NCBI GenBank assembly: GCA_942493095.1
Contig: OW818675.1
Span: 1,230,001-1,262,000 of the forward strand
Origin: Candidatus Electronema halotolerans
GTDB lineage: Bacteria; Desulfobacterota; Desulfobulbia; Desulfobulbales; Desulfobulbaceae
DNA: 32,000 nt
Reading direction: 5' to 3'
The position numbers and the translations under genes were made by a program. The notes under the pieces were generated by a model. It ran no database searches and had not been told where the DNA came from. It saw nothing but the letters and a program-made list of their open reading frames with translations. The stretch's first letter is position 1; each line of letters begins with the position of its first letter. Below, one piece after another: positions 1,106 through 29,645 of the stretch.

Positions 1106-2221
1106 ATGGGAGTCCCAAGAGTAATTTTTCGGGTCTGCGAGACCCTAAACTGTCCGAAATTTCAGTACGGAGACTCCTTCACTGTGTCCGGCGTGGCCGT
1201 GATGATGCGCAACAACGGCGACAGCTCCTTTGTCACCAGCACGGCTGTTCATGCCAATCAGAACCGCGACAACTGTGAAATCCTCTACGGCGATTTAGTC
1301 CGCCTGATCATCAAATACGAGCGAGCCGACCAAATCCCGGACTGCCTGATTTCATGCACCGGCTGCACCGGCTCGCTCCGCATTGAACATTACCGATATC
1401 CCAAGAAAAAGCAGGAACAGGAGGAGCTGGGAAAAACTAACAAGGAAGTGGCTGTTCTTGTTGAAAGTCTGGCAAGATTTCCTTTTTTTCAAATCATCAG
1501 CACCGACAGCCTGCATGAAGTGCTGCGCAATGCCAAGGTTGAGGATTTTAAAAAAGATGACATCGTCATCCGTCAGGGTGCTCTTGGCACAAAACTCTAT
1601 ATTCTCGCCAAAGGCAAGGTCAATATTCTCAATGACACCGGCATCTCTATCTCCACTTTAGCAGAAGGCGAGGTTTTTGGCGAGATGAGCCTGATCTGCG
1701 ACGAGAATATCGGGGCTACGGTGCAGGCGGCCAGCGATGCGAAAATCGTCAGCATTGACTACCGGGATTTTCAATTCATTCTGGATCGCTATCCGGCCAT
1801 GCTCCGCTATTTCATCCGGCTGATGGCCCAGCGCCTGAGCCGGTCCAATAAAATCCGCTTTGATGACTACGCCTCCGGCATGATCGGCAGACTTGAGGAA
1901 ATTCCGCCTGAAGCCCTGTTTCAAACTCTGCATGCCAATGCCAAAACCGGCATTCTCACCATAACCGAAGTGCCCAAAGGCACAGGACGTTTTTCGCTGC
2001 GCCAAGGCGGGCTGATCAAAGCCTCCTATGACGGCCAGAAAGGCACGGAGGCTTTTTTCAGAATCCTCCGGGAGAAAAAAGGGCGGTTCAAATTCAATCC
2101 TGGCCTGCCGCCTGCGGATTTTGACGCGCCGGAACTGGGCTATTTCATGAAACTGCTCATGGAAGGGCTTCAGCGGCTCGATGAAGGAAAAGCCGCCAGT
2201 GCCGCAGCAAAATCAAGCTGA
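1106..2221 (+). CDS. cyclic-nucleotide-binding domain protein with a Cys-rich N-terminal region and a C-terminal DUF4388 (PatA-like) domain
   Basis: The cNMP-binding signature is FPFFQIISTDSLHEVL...IVIRQGALGTKLYILAKGKVNIL...GEVFGEMSLI. The C-terminus GRLEEIPPEALFQTLHANAKTGILTI...GTEAFFRILREKKGRFKF matches the DUF4388 pattern. No HTH seen. Confidence 0.8.
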   Translation: MGVPRVIFRVCETLNCPKFQYGDSFTVSGVAVMMRNNGDSSFVTSTAVHANQNRDNCEILYGDLVRLIIKYERADQIPDCLISCTGCTGSLRIEHYRYPKKKQEQEELGKTNKEVAVLVESLARFPFFQIISTDSLHEVLRNAKVEDFKKDDIVIRQGALGTKLYILAKGKVNILNDTGISISTLAEGEVFGEMSLICDENIGATVQAASDAKIVSIDYRDFQFILDRYPAMLRYFIRLMAQRLSRSNKIRFDDYASGMIGRLEEIPPEALFQTLHANAKTGILTITEVPKGTGRFSLRQGGLIKASYDGQKGTEAFFRILREKKGRFKFNPGLPPADFDAPELGYFMKLLMEGLQRLDEGKAASAAAKSS

Positions 2222-5515: not shown

Positions 5516-6149
5516 GGTCTATCAGGAGCTGATGGGCGACAATGCGCACTGGGCGCAGCAGACGCGGGACTTGCTGGCCAAACAGCAGCTGGCCATGATC
5601 AACCTGATCGGCTCGCCCGGCTGCGGCAAGACCGCCCTGCTGGAGCGGCTGGCCGAGCAGCCCGATCTCCGCTTTGCCGTCTTGGAAGGAGACATTGAGA
5701 CCACCAACGATGCCGAGCGGCTGGCCCGGAAAAACGTGCTGGCCAGCCAGCTCCTGACCAAGGGCAGCTGCCACTTGGAGGCCAAGCTGGTCCATCATGC
5801 CCTCCGCGACCTGCCCTTGGCCGAGCTGGATTTGGTGGTGGTGGAGAATGTCGGCAATCTGGTCTGCCCGGCTGAGTTTGACATTGGCGAGCAGGCCAAA
5901 ATCGCTGTCCTCAGCGTGACCGAAGGCGAGGACAAGCCGCTCAAATACCCGCTCCTCTTTCGCGAGGCCAAGGCTGTCATCCTCTCCAAAATAGACCTGC
6001 TGCCCCACCTGCGTTTTGATCTTGAGGCGTGCATTGCCAATGTCCGCACGATCAACGGTGCTGTGCCCTTGTTTCATCTCTCCTCCGCCTCCGGGGCAGG
6101 CATGGACGATTTTACCGCCTGGCTGGGCAAGGAAATTCTGCATGGTTAA
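5496..6149 (+). CDS. hypB: hydrogenase maturation GTPase HypB
   Basis: P-loop GSPGCGKTALLERL, then CHLEA, ENVGNLVCPA and SKIDLL motifs. Overlaps hypA by 20 nt. Confidence 0.92.
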   Translation: MTRREIKVYQELMGDNAHWAQQTRDLLAKQQLAMINLIGSPGCGKTALLERLAEQPDLRFAVLEGDIETTNDAERLARKNVLASQLLTKGSCHLEAKLVHHALRDLPLAELDLVVVENVGNLVCPAEFDIGEQAKIAVLSVTEGEDKPLKYPLLFREAKAVILSKIDLLPHLRFDLEACIANVRTINGAVPLFHLSSASGAGMDDFTAWLGKEILHG

Positions 6150-9308: not shown

Positions 9309-10455
9309 TTATCAATTATTACAGTTAGCCAGTCAGATACTTCCAACTGAAGCAAGAAATTATGCGAAAGTTCATGGCTGGGAGCCTGTCACGGCAGCTA
9401 AAGGCAGGATTTGGGTCTTCAGGCATAGCGTGCAGAAACTTCGCCAGCTCGTTATCCCTATAGACCAAGAGGACGATGCATATTCTGAAGCAATTGTAGA
9501 GGTGTTGCAACGAATAGCTGACGATGAAAAGCGCAGTCCAATTGCTGTTGCTTCAGACCTCCTGATGCCGAATTCAGATATTGTACGGTTTCGAGTCGCC
9601 GGGGATGATATATTAGCTGGAAATTTATCTCTTGAGGATGGAGCATGTCTGATTGAAGGCGCAAAACGAGCTATTCTCTCGTCAGCGTGCTCGGTTATTA
9701 ACAAGACAACACACCATCCAAGAATGAGCAGGAGTGAAGCAGCAGAGATGCTGAAAGCCTGCAAGTTTGGCCAAACTGAATATGGGAGTTTTGTCGCTAA
9801 AATCGCCTGCCCTCTTAATGCGGTGGAGACAAATGCGTCTTTATTAGATGCGACGATGCCGTTTGTACGACATGCAACAAAATTGCTATCTTCAGCATGT
9901 CATCAACTTGTTGAGAGCATTGAAAATGATGCCGTATCAGCATTGATAGAAAACAATTCAGCCAACCCGATAATAACATCTAATCTCTGTGATGCTCTGC
10001 TGCGAATGCAAGGAGGGAGGGAAAAAAGCTCTCTTGGTATCGACATCACATGGGCTTCTAATCCCAATGTTCCCATTCCTGATGTTCCAAGGGGGGTAGT
10101 CTTCAAAGCGGAATACTTCCGAACAGTAGATGAAATACAAAGAGCATTGCGGCCTAAAAAAGAGAGCGACAGTTCTCAAACGTTGCTTGGCACTGTAGAA
10201 ACTTTAAATGGCCCTGTAGGTGAGGATGGCCGCCGTTCCGGTGAAGTGATTTTAGCCCTGCTTCTTGAGGATGAAGAGGTTGTCCGTGCCCGTGCTGTTC
10301 TTGGTCCAGATGAATATGCCCGTGCTGTTCAAGCTCATAACAAAGGGCGAACTTATATAATGGTTAAAGGTGTGCTTCAACGAGGGAACCGAATCAGCAG
10401 CCTGCAACAGGTTGAATCCTTCGATCTTGTAGGTCAATCTCCTCCTTCAGAGTAA
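9298..10455 (+). CDS. hypothetical 385-aa protein, translationally coupled to the DUF4365-like gene
   Basis: GGAGGA lies 8 nt upstream of the ATG. There is an 11-nt overlap with the upstream gene. No Walker A or other motif recognised. AT-richer composition. Confidence 0.7.
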   Translation: MMYNYQLLQLASQILPTEARNYAKVHGWEPVTAAKGRIWVFRHSVQKLRQLVIPIDQEDDAYSEAIVEVLQRIADDEKRSPIAVASDLLMPNSDIVRFRVAGDDILAGNLSLEDGACLIEGAKRAILSSACSVINKTTHHPRMSRSEAAEMLKACKFGQTEYGSFVAKIACPLNAVETNASLLDATMPFVRHATKLLSSACHQLVESIENDAVSALIENNSANPIITSNLCDALLRMQGGREKSSLGIDITWASNPNVPIPDVPRGVVFKAEYFRTVDEIQRALRPKKESDSSQTLLGTVETLNGPVGEDGRRSGEVILALLLEDEEVVRARAVLGPDEYARAVQAHNKGRTYIMVKGVLQRGNRISSLQQVESFDLVGQSPPSE

Positions 10456-10741: not shown

Positions 10742-11812
10742 ATGGGCACTGTGCAATATCGCGTCGAGCCGAATCCGCTGACCAAACCTGCATCCTACAA
10801 GCTCCGCTTCATCCCCCAACAGACAGCGGGCTACGATGAGCTGGCCGCTGCCCTTGCTGAGGACAACGGCCTGAGCGTCGAGCAGGCCAAGGCATTCCTC
10901 CAGTCAACGGTGAAGAATATCAAGAAGATGCTCTGCAACGGCATTCAGGTGACGCTGGAGGAAGCCTTCACTTTCGCCCTCTCCTTTCATGCCCGCCTGA
11001 CCAACCCGGATGACCCGCTGCCGCCGATTGACGAACTCCTTCGGGTCAGCATTTCGGCCAGTCGTCCTTTTGTCCAAGATATTGGGCAAGATATCACCTT
11101 GGAACGGGTTGCGGCAGCAGAAAAGGCTCCGGCCATCCTCTCCGCCGCAGACACGACCCTGCTGCTGAACAATGTCCTCAACCCGGACGGCGTGCTCCGC
11201 CTGACCGGCAGCAATCTTGCCTTTGACCGCAGCAGCCCGGACTGCCGCTGCCTCATTGTCGGCACCCAGAGCGGCAGCACGGAACAAACTCAGTTCGCGG
11301 GCATCAGCGACAGCGAAGTCCTGCTGGTGCCGCATATTCCGGCGCAGGCAAATCCTTGGAATAACGAGTACACGGTCTCGATCACCACCCGCTACACTGA
11401 ACATGGCTCGCTGCGCACCGGCACTTATGGACGCAAGCTGCGCTCGCCCCTGACTGCTGTCAATCTCAGTCATCCGAACCCGCCGGAGACCGGCATTCTT
11501 ACGGGCAGCGCGGCAAGCGCGTATGTCAGCATCATCGGCTGCACCATCTCGGCCAGCGAGCGGCTGCGCATTCAAGTCGATGCCAGTGTGCAGGAAAATC
11601 AGCTTTCCTTCCGCTTGGTGGCCATGCAGGACGGCGGCGCAATTGGCGGCATGGTGCCGGTGACGGCTAACGGGGAATTCACCCTGCCCGGTTTTGCCGG
11701 TTCCGCAGTCAGCAGCTTGCAGATCAGGGTTGATGACTATGCCGCCCTGCGAACGATGATCCGCAACGATTATGACAGCAGACTGGTGGATATTTTGGAT
11801 TTGCAGGTGTAG
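10742..11812 (+). CDS. HU-like DNA-binding domain protein with DUF4469-like Ig-fold region(s)
   Basis: ATG 10742 follows GGAGGG (10732-10737). The ORF-track start 10730 is an alternative. N-terminus YRVEPNPLTKPASYKLRFIPQQTAGYDELAAALAEDNGLSVEQAKAFLQSTVKNIKKMLCNGIQVTLEEAFTF resembles the Bacteroidota HU-HIG family. The downstream LNPDGVLRLTGSNLAF...YTVSITTRYTEHGSLRTG resembles DUF4469. Called from memory of the families. Confidence 0.6.
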   Translation: MGTVQYRVEPNPLTKPASYKLRFIPQQTAGYDELAAALAEDNGLSVEQAKAFLQSTVKNIKKMLCNGIQVTLEEAFTFALSFHARLTNPDDPLPPIDELLRVSISASRPFVQDIGQDITLERVAAAEKAPAILSAADTTLLLNNVLNPDGVLRLTGSNLAFDRSSPDCRCLIVGTQSGSTEQTQFAGISDSEVLLVPHIPAQANPWNNEYTVSITTRYTEHGSLRTGTYGRKLRSPLTAVNLSHPNPPETGILTGSAASAYVSIIGCTISASERLRIQVDASVQENQLSFRLVAMQDGGAIGGMVPVTANGEFTLPGFAGSAVSSLQIRVDDYAALRTMIRNDYDSRLVDILDLQV

Positions 11813-23472: not shown

Positions 23473-23784
23473 ATGATCTACGCAATAGAAACCACTGGGG
23501 CATTCGATGGCTGGCTGAAAAAGCTGCGGGACCGTAAAGCCGTTCTTGCTGTTCTCAATCGTCTCGACCGAGCCAAGCTGGGTAATTTTGGCGATGTCAA
23601 ACCAGTCGGAAACGGCATCAGCGAAATGCGGATATTCGTCGGGCCGGGCTATCGTGTCTATTACGTCATCCGTGATGAACGGATAATCCTTCTGCTTTGC
23701 GGTGGCGACAAATCGACTCAAACACGGGATATAGCAAAGGCAAAAGAGATGCTGAAGCACATGGGAGAAGATCATGGCGATTGA
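23473..23784 (+). CDS. addiction-module killer protein (RelE/ParE superfamily, HigB-like)
   Basis: FDGWLKKLRDRKAVLAVLNRLDRAKLGNFGDVKPVGNGISEMRIFVGPGYRVYYVIRDERIILLLCGGDKSTQTRDI is the canonical pattern of this family. Confidence 0.85.
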   Translation: MIYAIETTGAFDGWLKKLRDRKAVLAVLNRLDRAKLGNFGDVKPVGNGISEMRIFVGPGYRVYYVIRDERIILLLCGGDKSTQTRDIAKAKEMLKHMGEDHGD

Positions 23785-24052
23785 AATAAAAGACTACAAT
23801 CCGTTCGACTATCTGGAGACAAAAGAAGAGATCAGCGAATATCTCAACAATGCGTATCTTGACGATGATCCAAGAGTATTTCTTGTGGCACTTGGATATT
23901 TGGCAAAGAAACAGGGAATGAGCGAAGTCGCTAAAAAAGCTGGCCTGAACAGGGAAAGTTTATACAAGGCTCTTGCTGGAGATGGCAATCCGAGATTTTC
24001 CACGGTGAGCAAAGTGATCAAGGCTCTTGGTTGCAAGCTGGCAATTGCGTGA
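23774..24052 (+). CDS. addiction-module antidote protein (HigA-like HTH)
   Basis: DPRVFLVALGYLAKKQGMSEVAKKAGLNRESLYKALAGDGNPRFSTVSKVIKALG is the canonical pattern. It overlaps the toxin gene by 11 nt. Confidence 0.85.
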   Translation: MAIEIKDYNPFDYLETKEEISEYLNNAYLDDDPRVFLVALGYLAKKQGMSEVAKKAGLNRESLYKALAGDGNPRFSTVSKVIKALGCKLAIA

Positions 24053-24075: not shown

Positions 24076-24921
24076 ATGATCTTTTTCACCACCCAAGAAA
24101 TCGAAGCATGGATCAACGAGGATGCGCCTTTGGTTGATCTGACCAGTCATTTGCTCAAGATCAGCGATCAGCCCGCCCGGCTGACGGTTGTCACCCGCCA
24201 CCCGACCCGCGTTGCCCTGACTGAAGAGGCCGGACGAATCTTCGAGATTCTCGGCGGCACAGTCAAAAGTATGGTTGCTTCCGGGCAAGATGCGGCGGCC
24301 AAGACCGTGATCTTGGAGGTGGAAGGGCCAGCCGCTGCCCTGCACCGGGGCTGGAAAGTTGCTATGAATCTGCTGGAATATATGTGCGGTGTGGCAGGCC
24401 GGACAGCAGAGATGGTCAAAAAGGTGGAAGCCTGCGCCAAGATTCCTCTGCTCGTGACCCGCAAGCATCAGCCGGGCCTGAAAAAGCCGCTGCTCAAAGC
24501 TGTTCTGGCAGGCGGCGCGTATGCGCACCGGCTCGGCCTGTCGGAAACGGTGCTGATCTTTGCCAATCATCTCCGGCTGCTCGGCGGCAGGGAAGCCTTG
24601 CCAGCCCTATTAGCAGAGATGAAGGCTGCGGCCTGCGAACAGAAAATCACCGTGGAATGCGATGACTTGACCCAAGCAATGCAAGCGGCTGAGGCGGGCG
24701 CGGATTCAGTTCAGTTTGACAAGGTGCCGCCGGAGCAGCTTGCGGCTTGGTGCGCGGAATTGAAGAGCCGCTTTGCTCATCTGATTATCCTGAGCGCGGG
24801 CGGAGTCGGGCCGGACAATGTGCAGGACTATGCCCGCACTGGCGTGGACGGCATTGTTCTCAGCTCGATTTTTCATGCCAAGCCCGCTGATCTTGGCGTG
24901 ACCATTGAGCCGCTGCCATGA
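24076..24921 (+). CDS. modD: ModD (quinolinate-phosphoribosyltransferase-like molybdenum transport protein)
   Basis: ATG 24076 follows GGAGGA. MIFFTTQEIEAWINEDAPLVDLTS and the QPRT-like body (TRKHQPGLKKPLLKAVLAGGAYAHRLGLSE...ECDDLTQAMQAAEAGADSVQFDK) are present. Confidence 0.78.
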   Translation: MIFFTTQEIEAWINEDAPLVDLTSHLLKISDQPARLTVVTRHPTRVALTEEAGRIFEILGGTVKSMVASGQDAAAKTVILEVEGPAAALHRGWKVAMNLLEYMCGVAGRTAEMVKKVEACAKIPLLVTRKHQPGLKKPLLKAVLAGGAYAHRLGLSETVLIFANHLRLLGGREALPALLAEMKAAACEQKITVECDDLTQAMQAAEAGADSVQFDKVPPEQLAAWCAELKSRFAHLIILSAGGVGPDNVQDYARTGVDGIVLSSIFHAKPADLGVTIEPLP

Positions 24922-25586
24922 AAGCACTCCATTTTGACCTGCGCGGCAGGCTGGCCAGCGCAGCCGGGCCACTGAACGTGCATTGGCGCAAAGAACTGGC
25001 CCCTGGCAGCACCATTGTTCTCAGCGGCGAGTCAGGCAGCGGCAAGACCACCCTGCTGCGTGCGCTCTGCGGCCTGCCCGCGCAGGTGAGCGGCACAGTG
25101 GCTTGGGGAGAGGCACTCTGGCAGACCGAGGAAAAAATCCGCGTCCCGATTCAGCGGCGGCGGCTCGGCCTGATGTTTCAGCAGTATGGCCTGTTCCCGC
25201 ACAAGACCGTGCGCCAGCAGCTTGAATTTGCCTACAAAGACCCGGAGCGAGTCGAGCTGTGCCTGCGCAAGACCGAGCTGCTCCAGTTTGCCGATGTTCT
25301 GCCCAGCCGTCTTTCCGGCGGTCAGCAGCAGAGGCTGGCCTTGGCCCGCAGTCTGATGCGGCGGCCCGACCTGCTCATTCTTGACGAGCCGGTCAGCGCA
25401 TTGGATGTGCAGTTCCGGGAAAAAATGATCAACTGGCTGGCCGAGGAACGCAGCCAGCGGCCCTTCACCCTGCTGGTGGTCAGCCATCATCCGGCGGAGT
25501 GGGATCCGCTTTGTCCGGCCCAGTGGCAGATGGCGCAGGGGGAATTGTCAGATTTGCCAGCAGAGAGGCACGACCGCAGCCATTGA
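24918..25586 (+). CDS. modC: ABC transporter ATPase, short form without a C-terminal Mop/TOBE domain
   Basis: Walker A GESGSGKTTLL, signature LSGGQQQRLALARSL, Walker B LLILDEP. ATGA overlap with modD. Confidence 0.85.
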   Translation: MKALHFDLRGRLASAAGPLNVHWRKELAPGSTIVLSGESGSGKTTLLRALCGLPAQVSGTVAWGEALWQTEEKIRVPIQRRRLGLMFQQYGLFPHKTVRQQLEFAYKDPERVELCLRKTELLQFADVLPSRLSGGQQQRLALARSLMRRPDLLILDEPVSALDVQFREKMINWLAEERSQRPFTLLVVSHHPAEWDPLCPAQWQMAQGELSDLPAERHDRSH

Positions 25587-25626
25587 GCTGCTGTGAATGA
25601 AATCATTCGGCAAAAGCCTGACACGT

Positions 25627-25825
25627 CTAACTCAGCATGTCCAACCGACGCTGATGCCGTCCGCCGGAGAACTCTGTTTTCACCCAAGTGCGCACGATCT
25701 CGCAGGCCAGCTCCGGGCCGATCACCCTGCCGCCGAGACAAAGCACATTGGCATTGTTGTGCTCGCGGCTCATCCGGGCCGTGAAGGCTTCGTGGCAGAG
25801 CGCAGCCCGGATTTCCCGGTTGGCG
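25627..25825 (-). pseudogene. orphan copy of the rpiB 3' end
   Basis: It encodes [63 protein letters not shown], which differs from the intact rpiB C-terminus at one residue. There is no 5' part. It is the direct-repeat partner of 26838-27044. Confidence 0.8.
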
Positions 25826-26801
25826 TTATTTTTCAATAATTAAATACAAATAATCGTCAAAAAAACCTTCATGAATATGCGGATACATTTTCGTCAAGAC
25901 AGACTTGTATTTCCTCTCAATCCATGTTTTCTTTGCTTTGTACCGCCACCCTTCAAACGAGGACAAGCTGCTTAATATATTCAATTTGCTCGCACTGTCA
26001 ATCGTCATTTCAATTTCATGAAAGCTCACTCCTCGTCCTCTTCTTAAAAAAATGTTCCATTTTCAGTTCATTATATTCTGTATATAACTCTTTAAAATTT
26101 TCTCTTGAACTGAATTTTGAATACAAAAAGGCAAGTTCGTTTGGAAGCCAGTTGAAAAAAGGCAGTCTTGATGTGTGACTGTCAAAATACCATAGTCGAT
26201 TTGGTGTTTCAGTAATAATTAGCAATCCTCCAGAAGGAAGCATATCCCAAGAGTCCTTTAGAGACGATAACCTTTCATCTATTGTCATGTGTTCAAGACA
26301 GGCGAAAAAAACAATCATATCAAAACGTTCTGCTTCAAAAAAAGTTCTAATTTCTTGAGCATTCATCGCTTTGAATTCCGCATTCACCTCATAAACTTTA
26401 GCTCGTTGTTTTGCAACAAGCAATGCGCCATCATCAATATCAACACCTGTAACTCTTGCTCCTTGTTCAGCAAAAGCGATAGATGAAGAACCTGTGCCGC
26501 ATCCTATCTCTAGGATATTTTTATTTTTTAAAGAACAGGCATCATCTATCCAAGGAATAACTGTTTTTCTATCACTTTCAAGGCGTTCATGCAAGTGGGC
26601 AGCAATATCTGCCTTATATGCTTCAGGGGAATAACATTCTTTGCTTCTCCATCCTGTATGATAATTTTTTTCGAGAGAGGCTTTGATTAAGGATGCCCCA
26701 TCTTCTTGAATGGATATAAAATTTTCAGATAAATGTTTTGGAACAGGAAATAGAACTTTTCTTGCAACACGCTTAACAGGTTCTTGGATATATCTCAACA
26801 T
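25826..26801 (-). pseudogene. class I SAM-dependent methyltransferase split by a frameshift at an A7/T7 tract
   Basis: SAM motif ILEIGCGTGSSSIAFAEQGARVTGVDID. ORFs 26016-26801 and 25826-26029 overlap. Removing one base of the homopolymer at 26046-26052 joins them into one ORF of about 324 aa (...EHFLRRGRGVSFHEIEMTIDS...). Strongly AT-rich. Confidence 0.7.
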
Positions 26802-26838
26802 GATATCTTGACCATTCTGAATTTAATCTGTGCCCCTT
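25826..26838 (-). mobile_element. 1-kb AT-rich promoterless cassette flanked by 200-bp direct repeats of the rpiB 3' end
   Basis: The repeats are 25626-25825 and 26838-27044, with about 3 substitutions and one 6-nt indel. The cassette begins at the rpiB stop codon and ends exactly at the methyltransferase stop codon. No recombinase gene is present. Confidence 0.45.
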
Positions 26839-27264
26839 CTAACTCAGCATGTCCAACCGACGCTGATGCCGTCCGCCGGAGAACTCTGTCCGCACCCAAG
26901 TGCGCACAATCTCGCAGGCCAGCTCCGGGCCGATCACCCTGCCGCCGAGACAAAGCACATTGGCGTTGTTGTGCTCGCGGCTCATCCGGGCCGTGAAGGC
27001 TTCGTGGCAGAGCGCAGCCCGGATTTCCCGGTACCGGTTGGCGGCAATGGACATGCCAATGCCAGTGCCGCAGATGAGAATGCCGCGCTCGCAAGCCCCT
27101 GATTTCACCAAGGCGCAGACTTTTTCGGCAAAATCAGGATAATCCACGGATTGGCAATCATGACAGCCCACAGATTCAACTTCCACCGCCAAATCTTGAA
27201 GGCAGCCAAGCACCACCTGCTTCAGCTCAAAACCGCCGTGATCACTGCCCAGTGCAATTTTCAT
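26839..27264 (-). CDS. rpiB: ribose-5-phosphate isomerase B
   Basis: MKIALGSDHGGFELK...ILICGTGIGMSIAANR...[16 protein letters not shown] is canonical RpiB/LacAB. I preferred ATG 27264 (GAGGA upstream) over the upstream TTG at 27279. Confidence 0.9.
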   Translation of the reverse strand: MKIALGSDHGGFELKQVVLGCLQDLAVEVESVGCHDCQSVDYPDFAEKVCALVKSGACERGILICGTGIGMSIAANRYREIRAALCHEAFTARMSREHNNANVLCLGGRVIGPELACEIVRTWVRTEFSGGRHQRRLDMLS

Positions 27265-27268
27265 AATC

Positions 27269-28519
27269 TCAGTCCTCAAACCGCTTCATAATAATGACCG
27301 CATTGGTGCCGCCGAAGCCAAAGGAGTTGGACATCGCCGCCCGGATGCGCATTTCGCGGGCTGCATTCGGCACATAGTCCAAATCGCAGGCCGGATCAGG
27401 ATGTTCATAATTCATGGTTGGCGGAGCGCACTGATGCTGCATGGTCAGCGCGGTGAAAGCCGCCTCAATGCCGCCTGCGCCGCCGAGCATGTGCCCGGTC
27501 ATAGACTTGGTCGAGCTGATCGCCAATGTGCAAGCGTGGTCGCCAAAAACCGTCTTGATTGCTTTGGTCTCACAGCTGTCATTAAGCGGCGTGGAGGTGC
27601 CGTGCGCATTGATGTAGTCAATCTCGTCCGGGTTCATGCCTGCGGTGCGCAAAGCCATTGCCATGCAGCGGGCCGCGCCTTCGCCGTCCTCTGGCGGGGC
27701 AGCAATGTGGTAAGCATCGCTGCTCAGGCCGTAGCCGACTATTTCCGCATAAATTTTCGCTCCCCGTGCTCGTGCCGATTCCAGCTCCTCAAGCACAATC
27801 ATGCCCGATCCTTCCGCAATGATGAAGCCGTCCCGGTCCCGGTCAAAAGGCCGCGAGGCATGTTCGGGATCGTCGTTGCGGGTGGAAAGCGCCTTCATCG
27901 CCGCAAAACCGCCCACAGTCAGCGGACTTACAACTGACTCAGCACCACCAGTGACAGCAATGTCACAACTGCCGAAAAGAATATGCTTGTACGCCTCACC
28001 GACTGCATGGGTGCCAGCGGCGCAGGCGGTTGAAAGAGCCAGATTCGGCCCTTTGGCACCTAAGCGCATGGAGATGTGCCCGGACGGCATGTTGGGAATC
28101 ATGCGCGGCACGAGAAAGGGCGTGATCCGGCGCGGCCCCTTGGTCAGCAGAACAGAGTGATATTCCTCGATGGTGGGCATGCCGCCCATGCCGCAGCCGG
28201 TGATCACGCCGACCCGCTCCTGCAAGGCCTCGGAAATCTCCAAGCCGCTGTCCTGCACAGCCATGTCTGCTGCGGCCACGGCGTACTGGACAAACAGGTC
28301 AAGATTCTTAACCTGTTTTGGCTCAAACCAGCGTTCAGGCGTGAAATCCTTGACCTCAGCGGCAATTTGCGCGGCATGGGCCGAGGCATCAAAACGGGTG
28401 ATCGGCCCGATGCCGCTGCGCCCGTTCATCAGCCCCTGCCATGTTTTCTCTGTGCCAGTGCCCAATGGGGTCACCAGCCCGATTCCGGTCACCACAACCC
28501 GTCGTTTCATCCTCTTCAT
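27269..28519 (-). CDS. fabF: 3-oxoacyl-ACP synthase II
   Basis: RRVVVTGIGLVTPLG...STACAAGTHA...NAHGTSTPLND...SNSFGFGGTNA carries the KAS II catalytic Cys-His-His context. Confidence 0.93.
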   Translation of the reverse strand: MKRMKRRVVVTGIGLVTPLGTGTEKTWQGLMNGRSGIGPITRFDASAHAAQIAAEVKDFTPERWFEPKQVKNLDLFVQYAVAAADMAVQDSGLEISEALQERVGVITGCGMGGMPTIEEYHSVLLTKGPRRITPFLVPRMIPNMPSGHISMRLGAKGPNLALSTACAAGTHAVGEAYKHILFGSCDIAVTGGAESVVSPLTVGGFAAMKALSTRNDDPEHASRPFDRDRDGFIIAEGSGMIVLEELESARARGAKIYAEIVGYGLSSDAYHIAAPPEDGEGAARCMAMALRTAGMNPDEIDYINAHGTSTPLNDSCETKAIKTVFGDHACTLAISSTKSMTGHMLGGAGGIEAAFTALTMQHQCAPPTMNYEHPDPACDLDYVPNAAREMRIRAAMSNSFGFGGTNAVIIMKRFED

Positions 28520-28563: not shown

Positions 28564-28806
28564 CTATTCCTGATGCCCTTCCACGTAGTTGATCGCATCC
28601 TGAACAGTCTTGAGCTTCTCGGCATCATCGTCCGGGATTTCGATGTCAAACGCCTCTTCCATAGCCATGATCAGCTCAACCTGATCCAAGGAGTCTGCGC
28701 CAAGATCGTCAACAAAAGAAGCCTTGGGAATCACCTTCTCCTTGTCAACACTGAGCTGTTCAACAATGATATCAATCATCTTTTCTGTAGATGCCGCCAT
28801 GCTCAT
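28564..28806 (-). CDS. acpP: acyl carrier protein
   Basis: [20 protein letters not shown] contains the phosphopantetheine Ser motif. An alternative start at 28800 has better RBS spacing. Confidence 0.93.
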
Positions 28807-28895: not shown

Positions 28896-29645
28896 TTAAT
28901 TGCCCATGTGCATGCCGCCGTTGACATGCAGGGTCTGGCCGGTGATGTAGCCGCTCTCCTCAGAGGCGAGAAAGGCTGCTGCGCTGGCCACGTCGTCCGG
29001 CGTGCCAAGGCTGCCCAGAGGAATGGCCGCCAAAAGGTGCTCTTTCAGCTCCTCTTTCAAATCAGCTGTCATATCCGTGACAATATAGCCAGGCGCGACG
29101 CAGTTGACCGTGATCTGGCGCGAGGCCAGCTCCTTGGCCATTGATTTGGTCAGACCGATCAATCCGGCCTTGGCTGCGGCGTAGTTGACTTGGCCCGCGT
29201 TGCCGGTGCAGCCGATCACAGAGGTGATGTTGATGATCCGGCCCCAGCGGTGCTTCATCATGCCGCGCATGACTTCCTTGGCGCAGAGGAAGGCTCCTTT
29301 GAGATTGGTGTTCAGAACTGCGTCCCAATCCTCGTCCTTCATTCTGGCCATCAGGCTGTCTCTGTTGATGCCCGCGTTGTTGATCAGGATGTCAATGCCG
29401 CCGTGTTTGGCCGTGATCATTCTGACTGCGTTTTGCACTGCCGCACTGTCGGCCACGTCAAAGCCAATGACAAAGCCCTTGCCGCCAGCAGCGGTGATTT
29501 CTGCCAAGACTTCCTCGGCAGCAGCGGCGTTGCTGATATAGTTGATGCCGACATTCACACCCTGAGTTGCCAGCTTCAGGCAGATGGCTTTGCCAATGCC
29601 CCGGCTGCCGCCGGTGACCAAGGCGGTTTTTCCTGCAAGTGTCAT
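28896..29645 (-). CDS. fabG: 3-oxoacyl-ACP reductase
   Basis: KTALVTGGSRGIGKAI...NNAG...YAAAKAG is the SDR pattern typical of FabG. Confidence 0.92.
   Translation of the reverse strand: MTLAGKTALVTGGSRGIGKAICLKLATQGVNVGINYISNAAAAEEVLAEITAAGGKGFVIGFDVADSAAVQNAVRMITAKHGGIDILINNAGINRDSLMARMKDEDWDAVLNTNLKGAFLCAKEVMRGMMKHRWGRIINITSVIGCTGNAGQVNYAAAKAGLIGLTKSMAKELASRQITVNCVAPGYIVTDMTADLKEELKEHLLAAIPLGSLGTPDDVASAAAFLASEESGYITGQTLHVNGGMHMGN

Follow-up and report, generated by a model that had tools for sequence, protein, structure and literature searches.

The sequence analysed here is a window of 32,000 nt from Candidatus Electronema halotolerans (GenBank assembly GCA_942493095.1, contig OW818675.1, positions 1,230,001 to 1,262,000 of the forward strand; positions below are counted from the first letter of the window), and the element in question is a single methyltransferase gene located directly behind rpiB and enclosed by two copies of the rpiB 3' end. 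From 5' to 3' on the minus strand the order is fabG-acpP-fabF-rpiB-methyltransferase-orphan rpiB fragment, and modC lies beyond in the convergent orientation (Table 1). rpiB is the final housekeeping gene of the fabG-acpP-fabF-rpiB run. The orphan fragment has lost 6 nt in frame and has a Lys codon (AAA) in place of Arg; it is followed by the native downstream flank.

A repeat search of the window detected the two rpiB ends as a direct repeat of 202 nt with 96% identity and a spacing of 1212 nt; no third copy was present within the window. Chance cannot plausibly account for 200 nt repeated at 97% identity. An earlier sequence-only reading of this DNA, which had proposed a cassette inserted at the rpiB stop codon, described the copies as nearly identical, with about three substitutions and one 6-nt indel. 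The near-identity and the indel were confirmed, but the MAFFT alignment showed five substituted bases at the three sites (a TTT/CCG cluster, G/A, and A/G). The lone indel corresponds to 6 nt missing in the orphan, amid tandem CCGGT motifs near the inner edge, and in a pairwise alignment the copies matched from 1 nt beyond the stop codon inward for 200/207 nt, these substitutions and the indel included. The repeat thus begins 1 nt outside the rpiB stop codon, in agreement with that reading.

Table 1. Features of the rpiB locus in the window, and repeats bracketing related methyltransferase genes on other contigs
Sequence	Feature	Position	Strand	Evidence or remark
Window	acpP	28564-28806	minus	
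Window	fabF	27269-28519	minus	Pfam ketoacyl-synt; upstream operon gene, yardstick for host divergence
Window	rpiB, intact, 141 amino acids	ATG 27264, stop TAG 26839-26841	minus	Pfam LacAB_rpiB 1.5e-60; NCBIfam rpiB equivalog 3.9e-56
Window	Repeat copy within intact rpiB	26838..27044	minus	Final 206 nt of the gene including stop, plus 1 nt
Window	AT-rich insert leader, rpiB to methyltransferase ATG	26802..26837	minus	Comparison of window, L004, and L007; promoter scan
Window	Class-I S-adenosylmethionine (SAM)-dependent methyltransferase gene, 324 amino acids once repaired	25826..26801	minus	Pfam Methyltransf_25 1.8e-18
Window	T7 homopolymer (A7 on the plus strand), +1 frameshift site	26046..26052	minus	
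Window	Orphan rpiB 3' fragment	25626..25825	minus	Codons ~74-141, stop, and 1 nt; Pfam LacAB_rpiB 3.8e-27, profile positions 73-138
Window	modC (ABC ATPase)	24918..25586	plus	Pfam ABC_tran; native neighbour across the insertion site, convergent
Thiothrix L031	Direct repeat	9662-9734 / 11028-11100		Clearest case: 73 nt of moaA 3' coding region repeated beside the rsmE stop
Marinilabilia L009	Direct repeat	1-300 / 1365-1664		At least 300 nt at 94%
L051	Direct repeat	9405-9671 / 11020-11085		Degenerate ~66-nt duplication
L078	Direct repeat	181-199 / 1409-1427		19 nt, 100%
L069	Direct repeat	122-185 / 1596-1660		56-64 nt, tRNA 3' half by eye; flanks too short to count

The insert between the repeats is 1,012 bp long, and the methyltransferase gene is its sole gene. 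Its G+C content (GC) is 0.356 overall, compared with 0.536 for the whole window and about 58% for the adjacent fab and rpiB genes. Along the sequence, the GC is 0.33-0.40 over 25800-26800 versus 0.58-0.66 in the flanks, and the drop falls exactly between the repeats, so that the strongly AT-rich character noticed from the letters was reproduced. The spacer between the rpiB stop codon and the methyltransferase ATG (26801-26799) is exactly 37 nt (26802-26838), as had been claimed, and the promoter scan found no promoter-like or terminator-like site in this interval; no Shine-Dalgarno sequence was present in the leader. The 37-nt spacing and the lack of a promoter and a terminator suggest that the methyltransferase gene belongs to the fab-rpiB operon. 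The leader consensus following the rpiB stop codon, ACGAGGCRCAGATT..., is conserved among the orthologous cassettes (the window, L004, and L007). The repeat search, the list of open reading frames (ORFs), and Pfam all agreed with the earlier observation that neither the insert nor its borders contain an integrase, a transposase, attC, or a terminal inverted repeat. A near-consensus sigma-70-like site (TTGACA, 16 nt, TATATT) is located at 25974-26001 on the minus strand, inside the 3' part of the methyltransferase gene, and is directed towards the orphan rpiB fragment, on the strand antisense to modC; sigma-70-like sites are no more numerous in the region than expected from shuffled sequences.

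In the window, the methyltransferase gene is split into two ORFs, 26016-26801 (261 amino acids (aa), stop codon at 26016-26018) and 25826-26029 (67 aa). The sequence-only reading correctly assigned one methyltransferase gene as the only cargo but overlooked this frameshift. Its statement that the stop codon abuts the orphan repeat is valid for the repaired gene; in the window, however, the ATG-started ORF ends earlier, and the adjoining TAA (25826-25828) is that of the 67-aa second ORF. Deletion of one T from the T7 run yields a 324-aa protein that is ~99.4% identical to P0001 (two non-synonymous differences; one listing gave 100%), which is encoded on contig L003 from an independent sample, where the run is T6 and the ORF is intact. 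The additional T would therefore either inactivate the gene in the window or be a sequencing error. The exact-protein lookup with the truncated 261-aa ORF gave no match; this ORF is frameshifted, and the repaired version was matched. A second, independent homopolymer frameshift lies ~15 nt from the position of the first, at L007:842-849 (A9 to A8, in L007 and L008), where A8 is present and A9 would restore the frame. The two frameshifts could mean that the gene is dispensable and decaying or is switched on and off, or, for the window, that the sequence contains an error.

The cargo matched Methyltransf_25/11/31 in Pfam. No NCBIfam family scored above its cutoff, and PHROGs likewise gave only generic class-I methyltransferase similarity. 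An AlphaFold2 (AF2) model of the protein had a predicted local distance difference test score (pLDDT) of 89, and sequence searches of the PDB and Foldseek searches found only generic small-molecule or peptide class-I methyltransferases such as TleD, UbiG, MitM, and MccD, with template modelling (TM) scores of 0.4-0.45. The protein has no N6_Mtase or DNA_methylase domain, no (D/N/S)PP(Y/F) motif was seen on reading its sequence, and the insert encodes no nuclease. The match in PADLOC was partial and confined to the methyltransferase domain of mad2. The protein family, of ~325 aa, has more than 1,600 members across many phyla; the neighbourhoods of two distant family homologues had nothing in common.

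The empty site predicted by the sequence-only reading was found in strains ~99% identical to that of the window, showing that the cassette is an insertion relative to these strains. On contigs L001 (Logan SRR11827438) and L002 (JGI 3300036147), the rpiB stop codon is directly followed by ACGTGTCAGGCTTTTGCCGAATGATTTCAT..., which is the same sequence as that 3' of the orphan copy in the window, and the downstream flank is identical and leads to modC. Over 2.9 kb, both contigs share 99.0% identity with the window, and their RpiB protein is the same. There are 29-30 mismatches to the window, of which only 3-5 are in the 2 kb adjoining the site. Judging from their sizes and gene contents, two further contigs suggest empty sites, one from ENA (3,908 bp; complete fabG, fabF, rpiB, and modC) and one from Logan (1,635 bp; rpiB and modC). 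Twenty-two of the 29-30 differences between the window and L001/L002 are clustered in ~160 nt (28977-29134) at the fabG 3' end; this patch of substitutions looks like an imported recombination tract.

The sequence-only reading had allowed for the duplication being an assembly artefact, and a homopolymer frameshift such as that in the window is typical of long-read assemblies. However, the two copies differ by five bases and a 6-nt indel, which counts against a collapsed or chimeric repeat. In addition, L003, a 1,076-bp contig of run ERR9669565, carries P0001 together with both window junctions; one of its ends falls 30 nt inside the rpiB end and the other 35 nt inside the orphan, so that the 6-nt deletion is covered, which is the expected assembler output for a unique segment between two repeats. 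Contigs of 9.5, 6.3, and 3.4 kb in other assemblies span the equivalent structure. The recurrence of identical junctions in an independent sample and the spanning contigs in other lineages led us to regard an artefact in the source genome as refuted.

The closest further methyltransferases are also encoded directly 3' of rpiB. The gene for P0002 (82% identity), on L004 and L005, is found in the order electron transfer flavoprotein (ETF)-fabG-acpP-fabF-rpiB-methyltransferase, followed by a 133-nt rpiB repeat (94%) and an NTP-transferase gene. On L007, which encodes P0008 (85% over the aligned 76%), the rpiB end, the methyltransferase gene, and a 74-aa rpiB fragment are followed by a PD-(D/E)xK nuclease gene on the opposite strand and glyA. 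The orthologous cassettes are represented by L004/L005/L006 and by L007/L008; the downstream neighbour differs in each lineage, the orphan is always kept, and the methyltransferase stop codon adjoins the orphan in all three cassette lineages (3/3). The named relatives of RpiB are those of Candidatus Electronema (82-84%) and Candidatus Electrothrix (77-82%), indicating that the hosts are Desulfobulbaceae related to cable bacteria. Scans with the methyltransferase found no further close copy (>72%) in GTDB species genomes or JGI metagenomes, and no match above 36-46% partial identity in plasmid and phage collections. In the L004/L005 lineage, two 87-nt direct repeats (L004:5860-5946 and 6007-6093; 77%, spacing 147) occur in non-coding DNA downstream of the orphan.

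Three relatives have no cassette at this position. In L106, rpiB is separated from glyA by 200 nt (L106:5427-5628), an order that is probably ancestral. In Candidatus Electronema sp. VV (L104:5427-7591), IS1-like remnants, a 227-aa ORF, and the same PD-(D/E)xK nuclease gene lie between rpiB and glyA. In L103, an apparent N-terminus of a Dam-type DNA methyltransferase, recognized by eye, comes right after the rpiB stop codon (L103:2563-2675). Immediately downstream of rpiB there is evidently a hotspot for foreign DNA. The nearest outgroup methyltransferase, a 72% homologue in an Electronema-like genome (L098:464-1603, the same contig as L036; also L099), has its gene between glyA and a disrupted PD-(D/E)xK nuclease gene, which gives a second location ~1 kb or less from the rpiB site; no rpiB repeat or remnant was detectable beside it in L098. 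A possible cassette scar in L104 amounted to a weak similarity of only 23 nt and was not used.

The age of the insertion was estimated from synonymous divergence (dS), calculated by the Nei-Gojobori method (NG86). Between the window and L004, the dS values were 0.535 for fabG, 0.486 for acpP, 0.560 for fabF, 0.517 for rpiB, and 0.567 ± 0.07 for the methyltransferase gene. The corresponding values for the methyltransferase gene and the rpiB 3' 207 nt were 0.567 and 0.46 (window and L004), 0.70 and 0.84 (window and L007), and 0.66 and 0.99 (L004 and L007), and the two sequences gave the same topology. The host genes fall into two groups, window/L004/L103 (dS 0.43-0.56) and L007/L104/L106 (0.32-0.52, except for an outlying fabF value of 0.94 between L104 and L106), with a host dS of ~0.6-1.1 between the groups; the methyltransferase value is compatible with this range. 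Since the dS of the cargo equals that of the flanks, the cargo has diverged in step with the chromosome, which points to an old, vertically inherited insertion. Judged from these sequences, the insertion is older than the divergence of the window and L004 lineages, and probably also older than the split from the Electronema-like group. The dN of the methyltransferase gene between the window and L004 was 0.09, and the resulting dN/dS of 0.16 shows that the gene is under purifying selection. The mobility implied by the sequence-only reading, in the form of attL/attR ends or a recent Campbell crossover, is thus not supported, in view of the orthology in three lineages and the agreement of cargo and flank dS, as well as of orphans that follow the host rpiB, the absence of a recombinase, and the lack of a close copy on plasmids, in phages, or elsewhere.

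In the last 120 nt of the repeats, the intact copy and the orphan differ at four positions within the window and at four within L004, whereas 12-13 mismatches separate the window from L004 in every combination of intact and orphan copies, and 24-28 separate either from L007 in any combination. Within L007, 2 of 68 positions differ between the intact copy and the orphan. The repeats are thus 97% alike within each genome, with orthologues 10-20% apart. The orphan is too little diverged to be an old pseudogene without constraint, and must have been overwritten from rpiB, selected, or re-created; gene conversion from rpiB is the simplest reading. At one codon, the orphans of the window and L004 both encode Lys (AAA/AAG), as opposed to CGG and ACG in the intact copies and AGG in L103, which fits orthologous orphans that keep an older state.

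Selection on the orphan itself, as a fragment translated from the TTG in TTATTGAAAAA or acting as a regulatory sequence, would make gene conversion unnecessary. The orphan frame is open in 3/3 lineages and in the same +1 frame relative to the methyltransferase gene, the indels are in frame (6 nt in the window and 75 nt in L004), and the substitutions are mostly synonymous. However, two in-frame indels would occur together by chance in about 1 in 9 cases, and the same pattern would be expected from gene conversion with a selected template. The fragment moreover has no ribosome-binding site, lacks the N-terminal half of the RpiB fold, and has lost 25 codons in L004, and we consider a function of the orphan very improbable. 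Programmed frameshifting that would join the methyltransferase to the orphan was also rejected; the +1 frame relation is conserved, yet there is no conserved slippery site.

We conclude that the locus probably represents an ancient single-gene insertion with a target duplication of ~200 bp, which has been retained by selection and inherited vertically, with repeats homogenized by gene conversion and with occasional loss by recombination between the repeats. About 1 kb of foreign, AT-rich DNA, comprising a short leader and one class-I SAM methyltransferase gene, would have been joined to the 3' end of rpiB in an ancestor of a clade of Desulfobulbaceae related to cable bacteria. The joining would have duplicated the final ~207 nt of rpiB, so that one copy completes rpiB and the other is orphaned beside the original downstream flank. 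Possibly a linear fragment was attached to sister copies at two points separated by 207 nt, or a circularised fragment underwent a single crossover with rpiB. The promoterless methyltransferase gene would thereby have become the last gene of the fabG-acpP-fabF-rpiB transcription unit and would since have been inherited vertically under purifying selection, while gene conversion from the selected rpiB copy presumably kept the repeats of each genome nearly identical. RecA-type crossing-over between the repeats would delete the cassette precisely and generate the empty-site alleles of near-identical strains. In view of the age of the cassette and the near-identity of the flanks of carriers and non-carriers, we infer that these empty sites are recent losses; re-gain of the cassette within the species by homologous recombination may also have taken place.

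The presence or absence of the cassette might alternatively result from repeated gain and loss, the cassette, flanked as it is by two copies of a conserved housekeeping segment, spreading by homologous recombination into rpiB genes that lack it, either as an excised 1.2-kb circle through one crossover or as a linear piece with a fabF-rpiB left arm and an orphan right arm. Carriers and non-carriers differ by less than 0.2% beside the site, the orphan persists in every lineage with a different downstream neighbour, the clustered fabG substitutions suggest that imports occur at this locus, and Furuta et al. propose an invade-amplify-release cycle from such repeats (PMC2853133). No transfer across lineages is visible, however, because the dS of the methyltransferase gene tracks that of the flanks, and every orphan matches its own host. 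Natural competence or transduction is not established for these bacteria, and such spread would account for the distribution of the cassette but not for its origin. We regard it as a rather unlikely explanation.

Several points nevertheless weigh against a single ancient insertion. It demands at least four independent losses (L001/L002, L103, L104, and L106), and within the species loss rather than re-gain is the direction that we infer. The number of cassette lineages is just three, and the host divergence of L007 was derived from 207 nt of rpiB and proxies, with large dS errors. The dS values of a 36%-GC gene and of 58%-GC genes are not strictly comparable, and the GC at third codon positions (GC3) of the methyltransferase gene is still 0.25-0.27 despite the divergence, indicating little amelioration. 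Gene conversion is likewise an indirect deduction, as selection on a translated orphan would conserve the orphan equally; the orphan ORF is open in all three lineages with indels in frame.

Direct repeats with one copy on each side of the methyltransferase gene, no farther than 600 nt from it, were sought in the retrieved loci of the family, and genes with flanks of at least 300 nt were counted. Repeats of at least 19 nt bracketing a unit of 1.14-1.47 kb were found for 5/51 family members but for 0/189 size-matched control genes at the same loci, which showed only 13-15-nt matches; this enrichment rests on a small sample. The repeat-bracketed members have 44-63% identity and belong to Thiothrix, Marinilabilia, and metagenomic lineages, with a spacing of 1.2-1.5 kb (Table 1). 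In the Thiothrix case, an AT-rich leader and the methyltransferase gene lie between the moaA copies. The Marinilabilia case was rejected as a clean parallel, as the contig opens with the last 13 nt of a methyltransferase gene and a tandem array is more likely. The resemblance of the L069 repeat to a transfer RNA (tRNA) was not confirmed by ARAGORN or Rfam. No empty site was found for the cases outside rpiB; the only close contig of Thiothrix ends inside the repeat.

The same observations bear on the idea of a minimal site-specific integrative cassette, which would be mobilised in trans by a recombinase encoded elsewhere, target the 3' ends of genes, and bring a replacement end, in the manner of integrase-less cis-mobilisable islands or of e14 and phage 21 in icd. 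In its favour, the structure has exactly the topology of attL/attR at the 3' end of a gene, there is an empty site, and family members elsewhere are bracketed by local direct repeats (73 nt of moaA in L031 and 56-64 nt in L069). However, no recombinase is encoded in or beside the insert in the 32 kb available, and no conserved att copy distinct from the host is carried by the element, the repeats being host-specific over their full length. Both the repeat length (19-300 nt) and the target (rpiB, moaA, and others) vary between cases, the tRNA-like repeat is unconfirmed, and the cassette has diverged together with its host, without any sign of movement after the lineages separated. We therefore consider an integrative cassette of this kind improbable.

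The elements e14 and phage 21 in the icd gene of E. coli are prophage-like, 20-40 kb in length, and have their own integrase and their own diverged replacement end. The rpiB locus resembles them in the duplicated gene 3' end, with an intact gene on one side and an orphan fragment of ~150-200 bp on the other, but its insert is one gene without an integrase, and its repeats follow the host. Campbell-type single crossover of a non-replicating circle with an internal-to-3' gene fragment, as with laboratory suicide vectors, predicts an intact gene, an insert, and a duplicated 3' fragment with precise reversal, which is the structure seen at rpiB. It requires, however, a circular donor linking the methyltransferase gene to an rpiB fragment; no such donor and no vector sequences were found. 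Like integron cassettes, the insert is a promoterless single ORF with a very short leader, presumably expressed from an upstream promoter, but no attC-like imperfect inverted repeat follows the ORF (the stop codon adjoins the rpiB fragment), no attI or intI is nearby, and integron cassettes are not characterised by long target duplications. Insertion sequences (ISs), transposons, and miniature inverted-repeat transposable elements (MITEs) have terminal inverted repeats and a duplication of 2-15 bp, whereas the rpiB insert has a 200-nt duplication and no terminal inverted repeats.

The closest precedent is insertion with long target duplication (Nobusato et al. 2000, Gene 259:99; Furuta, Abe and Kobayashi 2010, NAR 38:2428, PMC2853133). 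In this class, restriction-modification (RM) units are flanked by direct repeats of 46-423 bp that are single-copy in the genome with the empty site; mobility genes are absent, and a start or stop codon often falls within the repeats, which lets the target gene survive (PMC2853133). The mechanism has been tentatively tied to double-strand breakage by the RM system, and the flanking repeats can later drive amplification (PMC2853133). The definition of Furuta et al. includes flanking repeats of >30 bp that are single-copy at a related empty site, and those at rpiB are 200/207 nt long and single-copy in L001 and L002; it also specifies an insert of <20 kb without a mobility gene, as is the 1,012-bp insert here. 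The third part of the definition, restriction and modification homologues in the insert, does not apply to the rpiB cassette, which is accordingly a variant of the class rather than a member, agreeing in all structural respects. Shared with the RM cases are a small foreign low-GC segment, stop-spanning repeats that keep the target intact, and the potential of the repeats to drive deletion or amplification. In contrast to them, the cargo includes no restriction enzyme but consists of a class-I SAM methyltransferase of the small-molecule type, so that the double-strand-break idea is inapplicable, and the insertion has persisted through speciation with concerted evolution of its repeats, which is not described for RM units.

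Apart from the insert, the genes within 5 kb are fab, rpiB, and mod genes and one toxin-antitoxin pair ~1.6 kb from the orphan repeat. This pair (23473-24052; Gp49-like PF05973 and an HI1420-type antitoxin, PF21716) has a lower GC of 0.47 and is wedged between modB and a ModD/QRPTase-like gene, within the molybdate transport cluster.

The enrichment of repeats raises the question of whether the ~325-aa methyltransferase family as a whole constitutes a recurrent single-gene mobile unit, without a recombinase and with long, variable target duplications, in several phyla, the examples being Desulfobulbaceae at rpiB, Thiothrix at moaA, Marinilabilia, and others. We consider this doubtful. If true, the unit would be a non-RM counterpart of the 'long target duplication' elements of Kobayashi, and would imply either host-driven insertion independent of the cargo or an activity, so far unrecognised, of the N- and C-terminal extensions that are specific to the family. 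The enrichment of the signature in one protein family makes the insertion mechanism more testable.

The findings at rpiB would extend insertion with long target duplication, hitherto tied to RM genes and their DNA cutting, to an ordinary small-molecule methyltransferase. They suggest that a repeat-flanked insertion can outlast speciation, with its repeats maintained by gene conversion, and still yield clean presence/absence alleles. They also explain why genomes related to cable bacteria are annotated with a pseudogene fragment of rpiB and a split methyltransferase, and would provide a concrete route by which a promoterless foreign gene can be added to the end of a housekeeping operon without damage.

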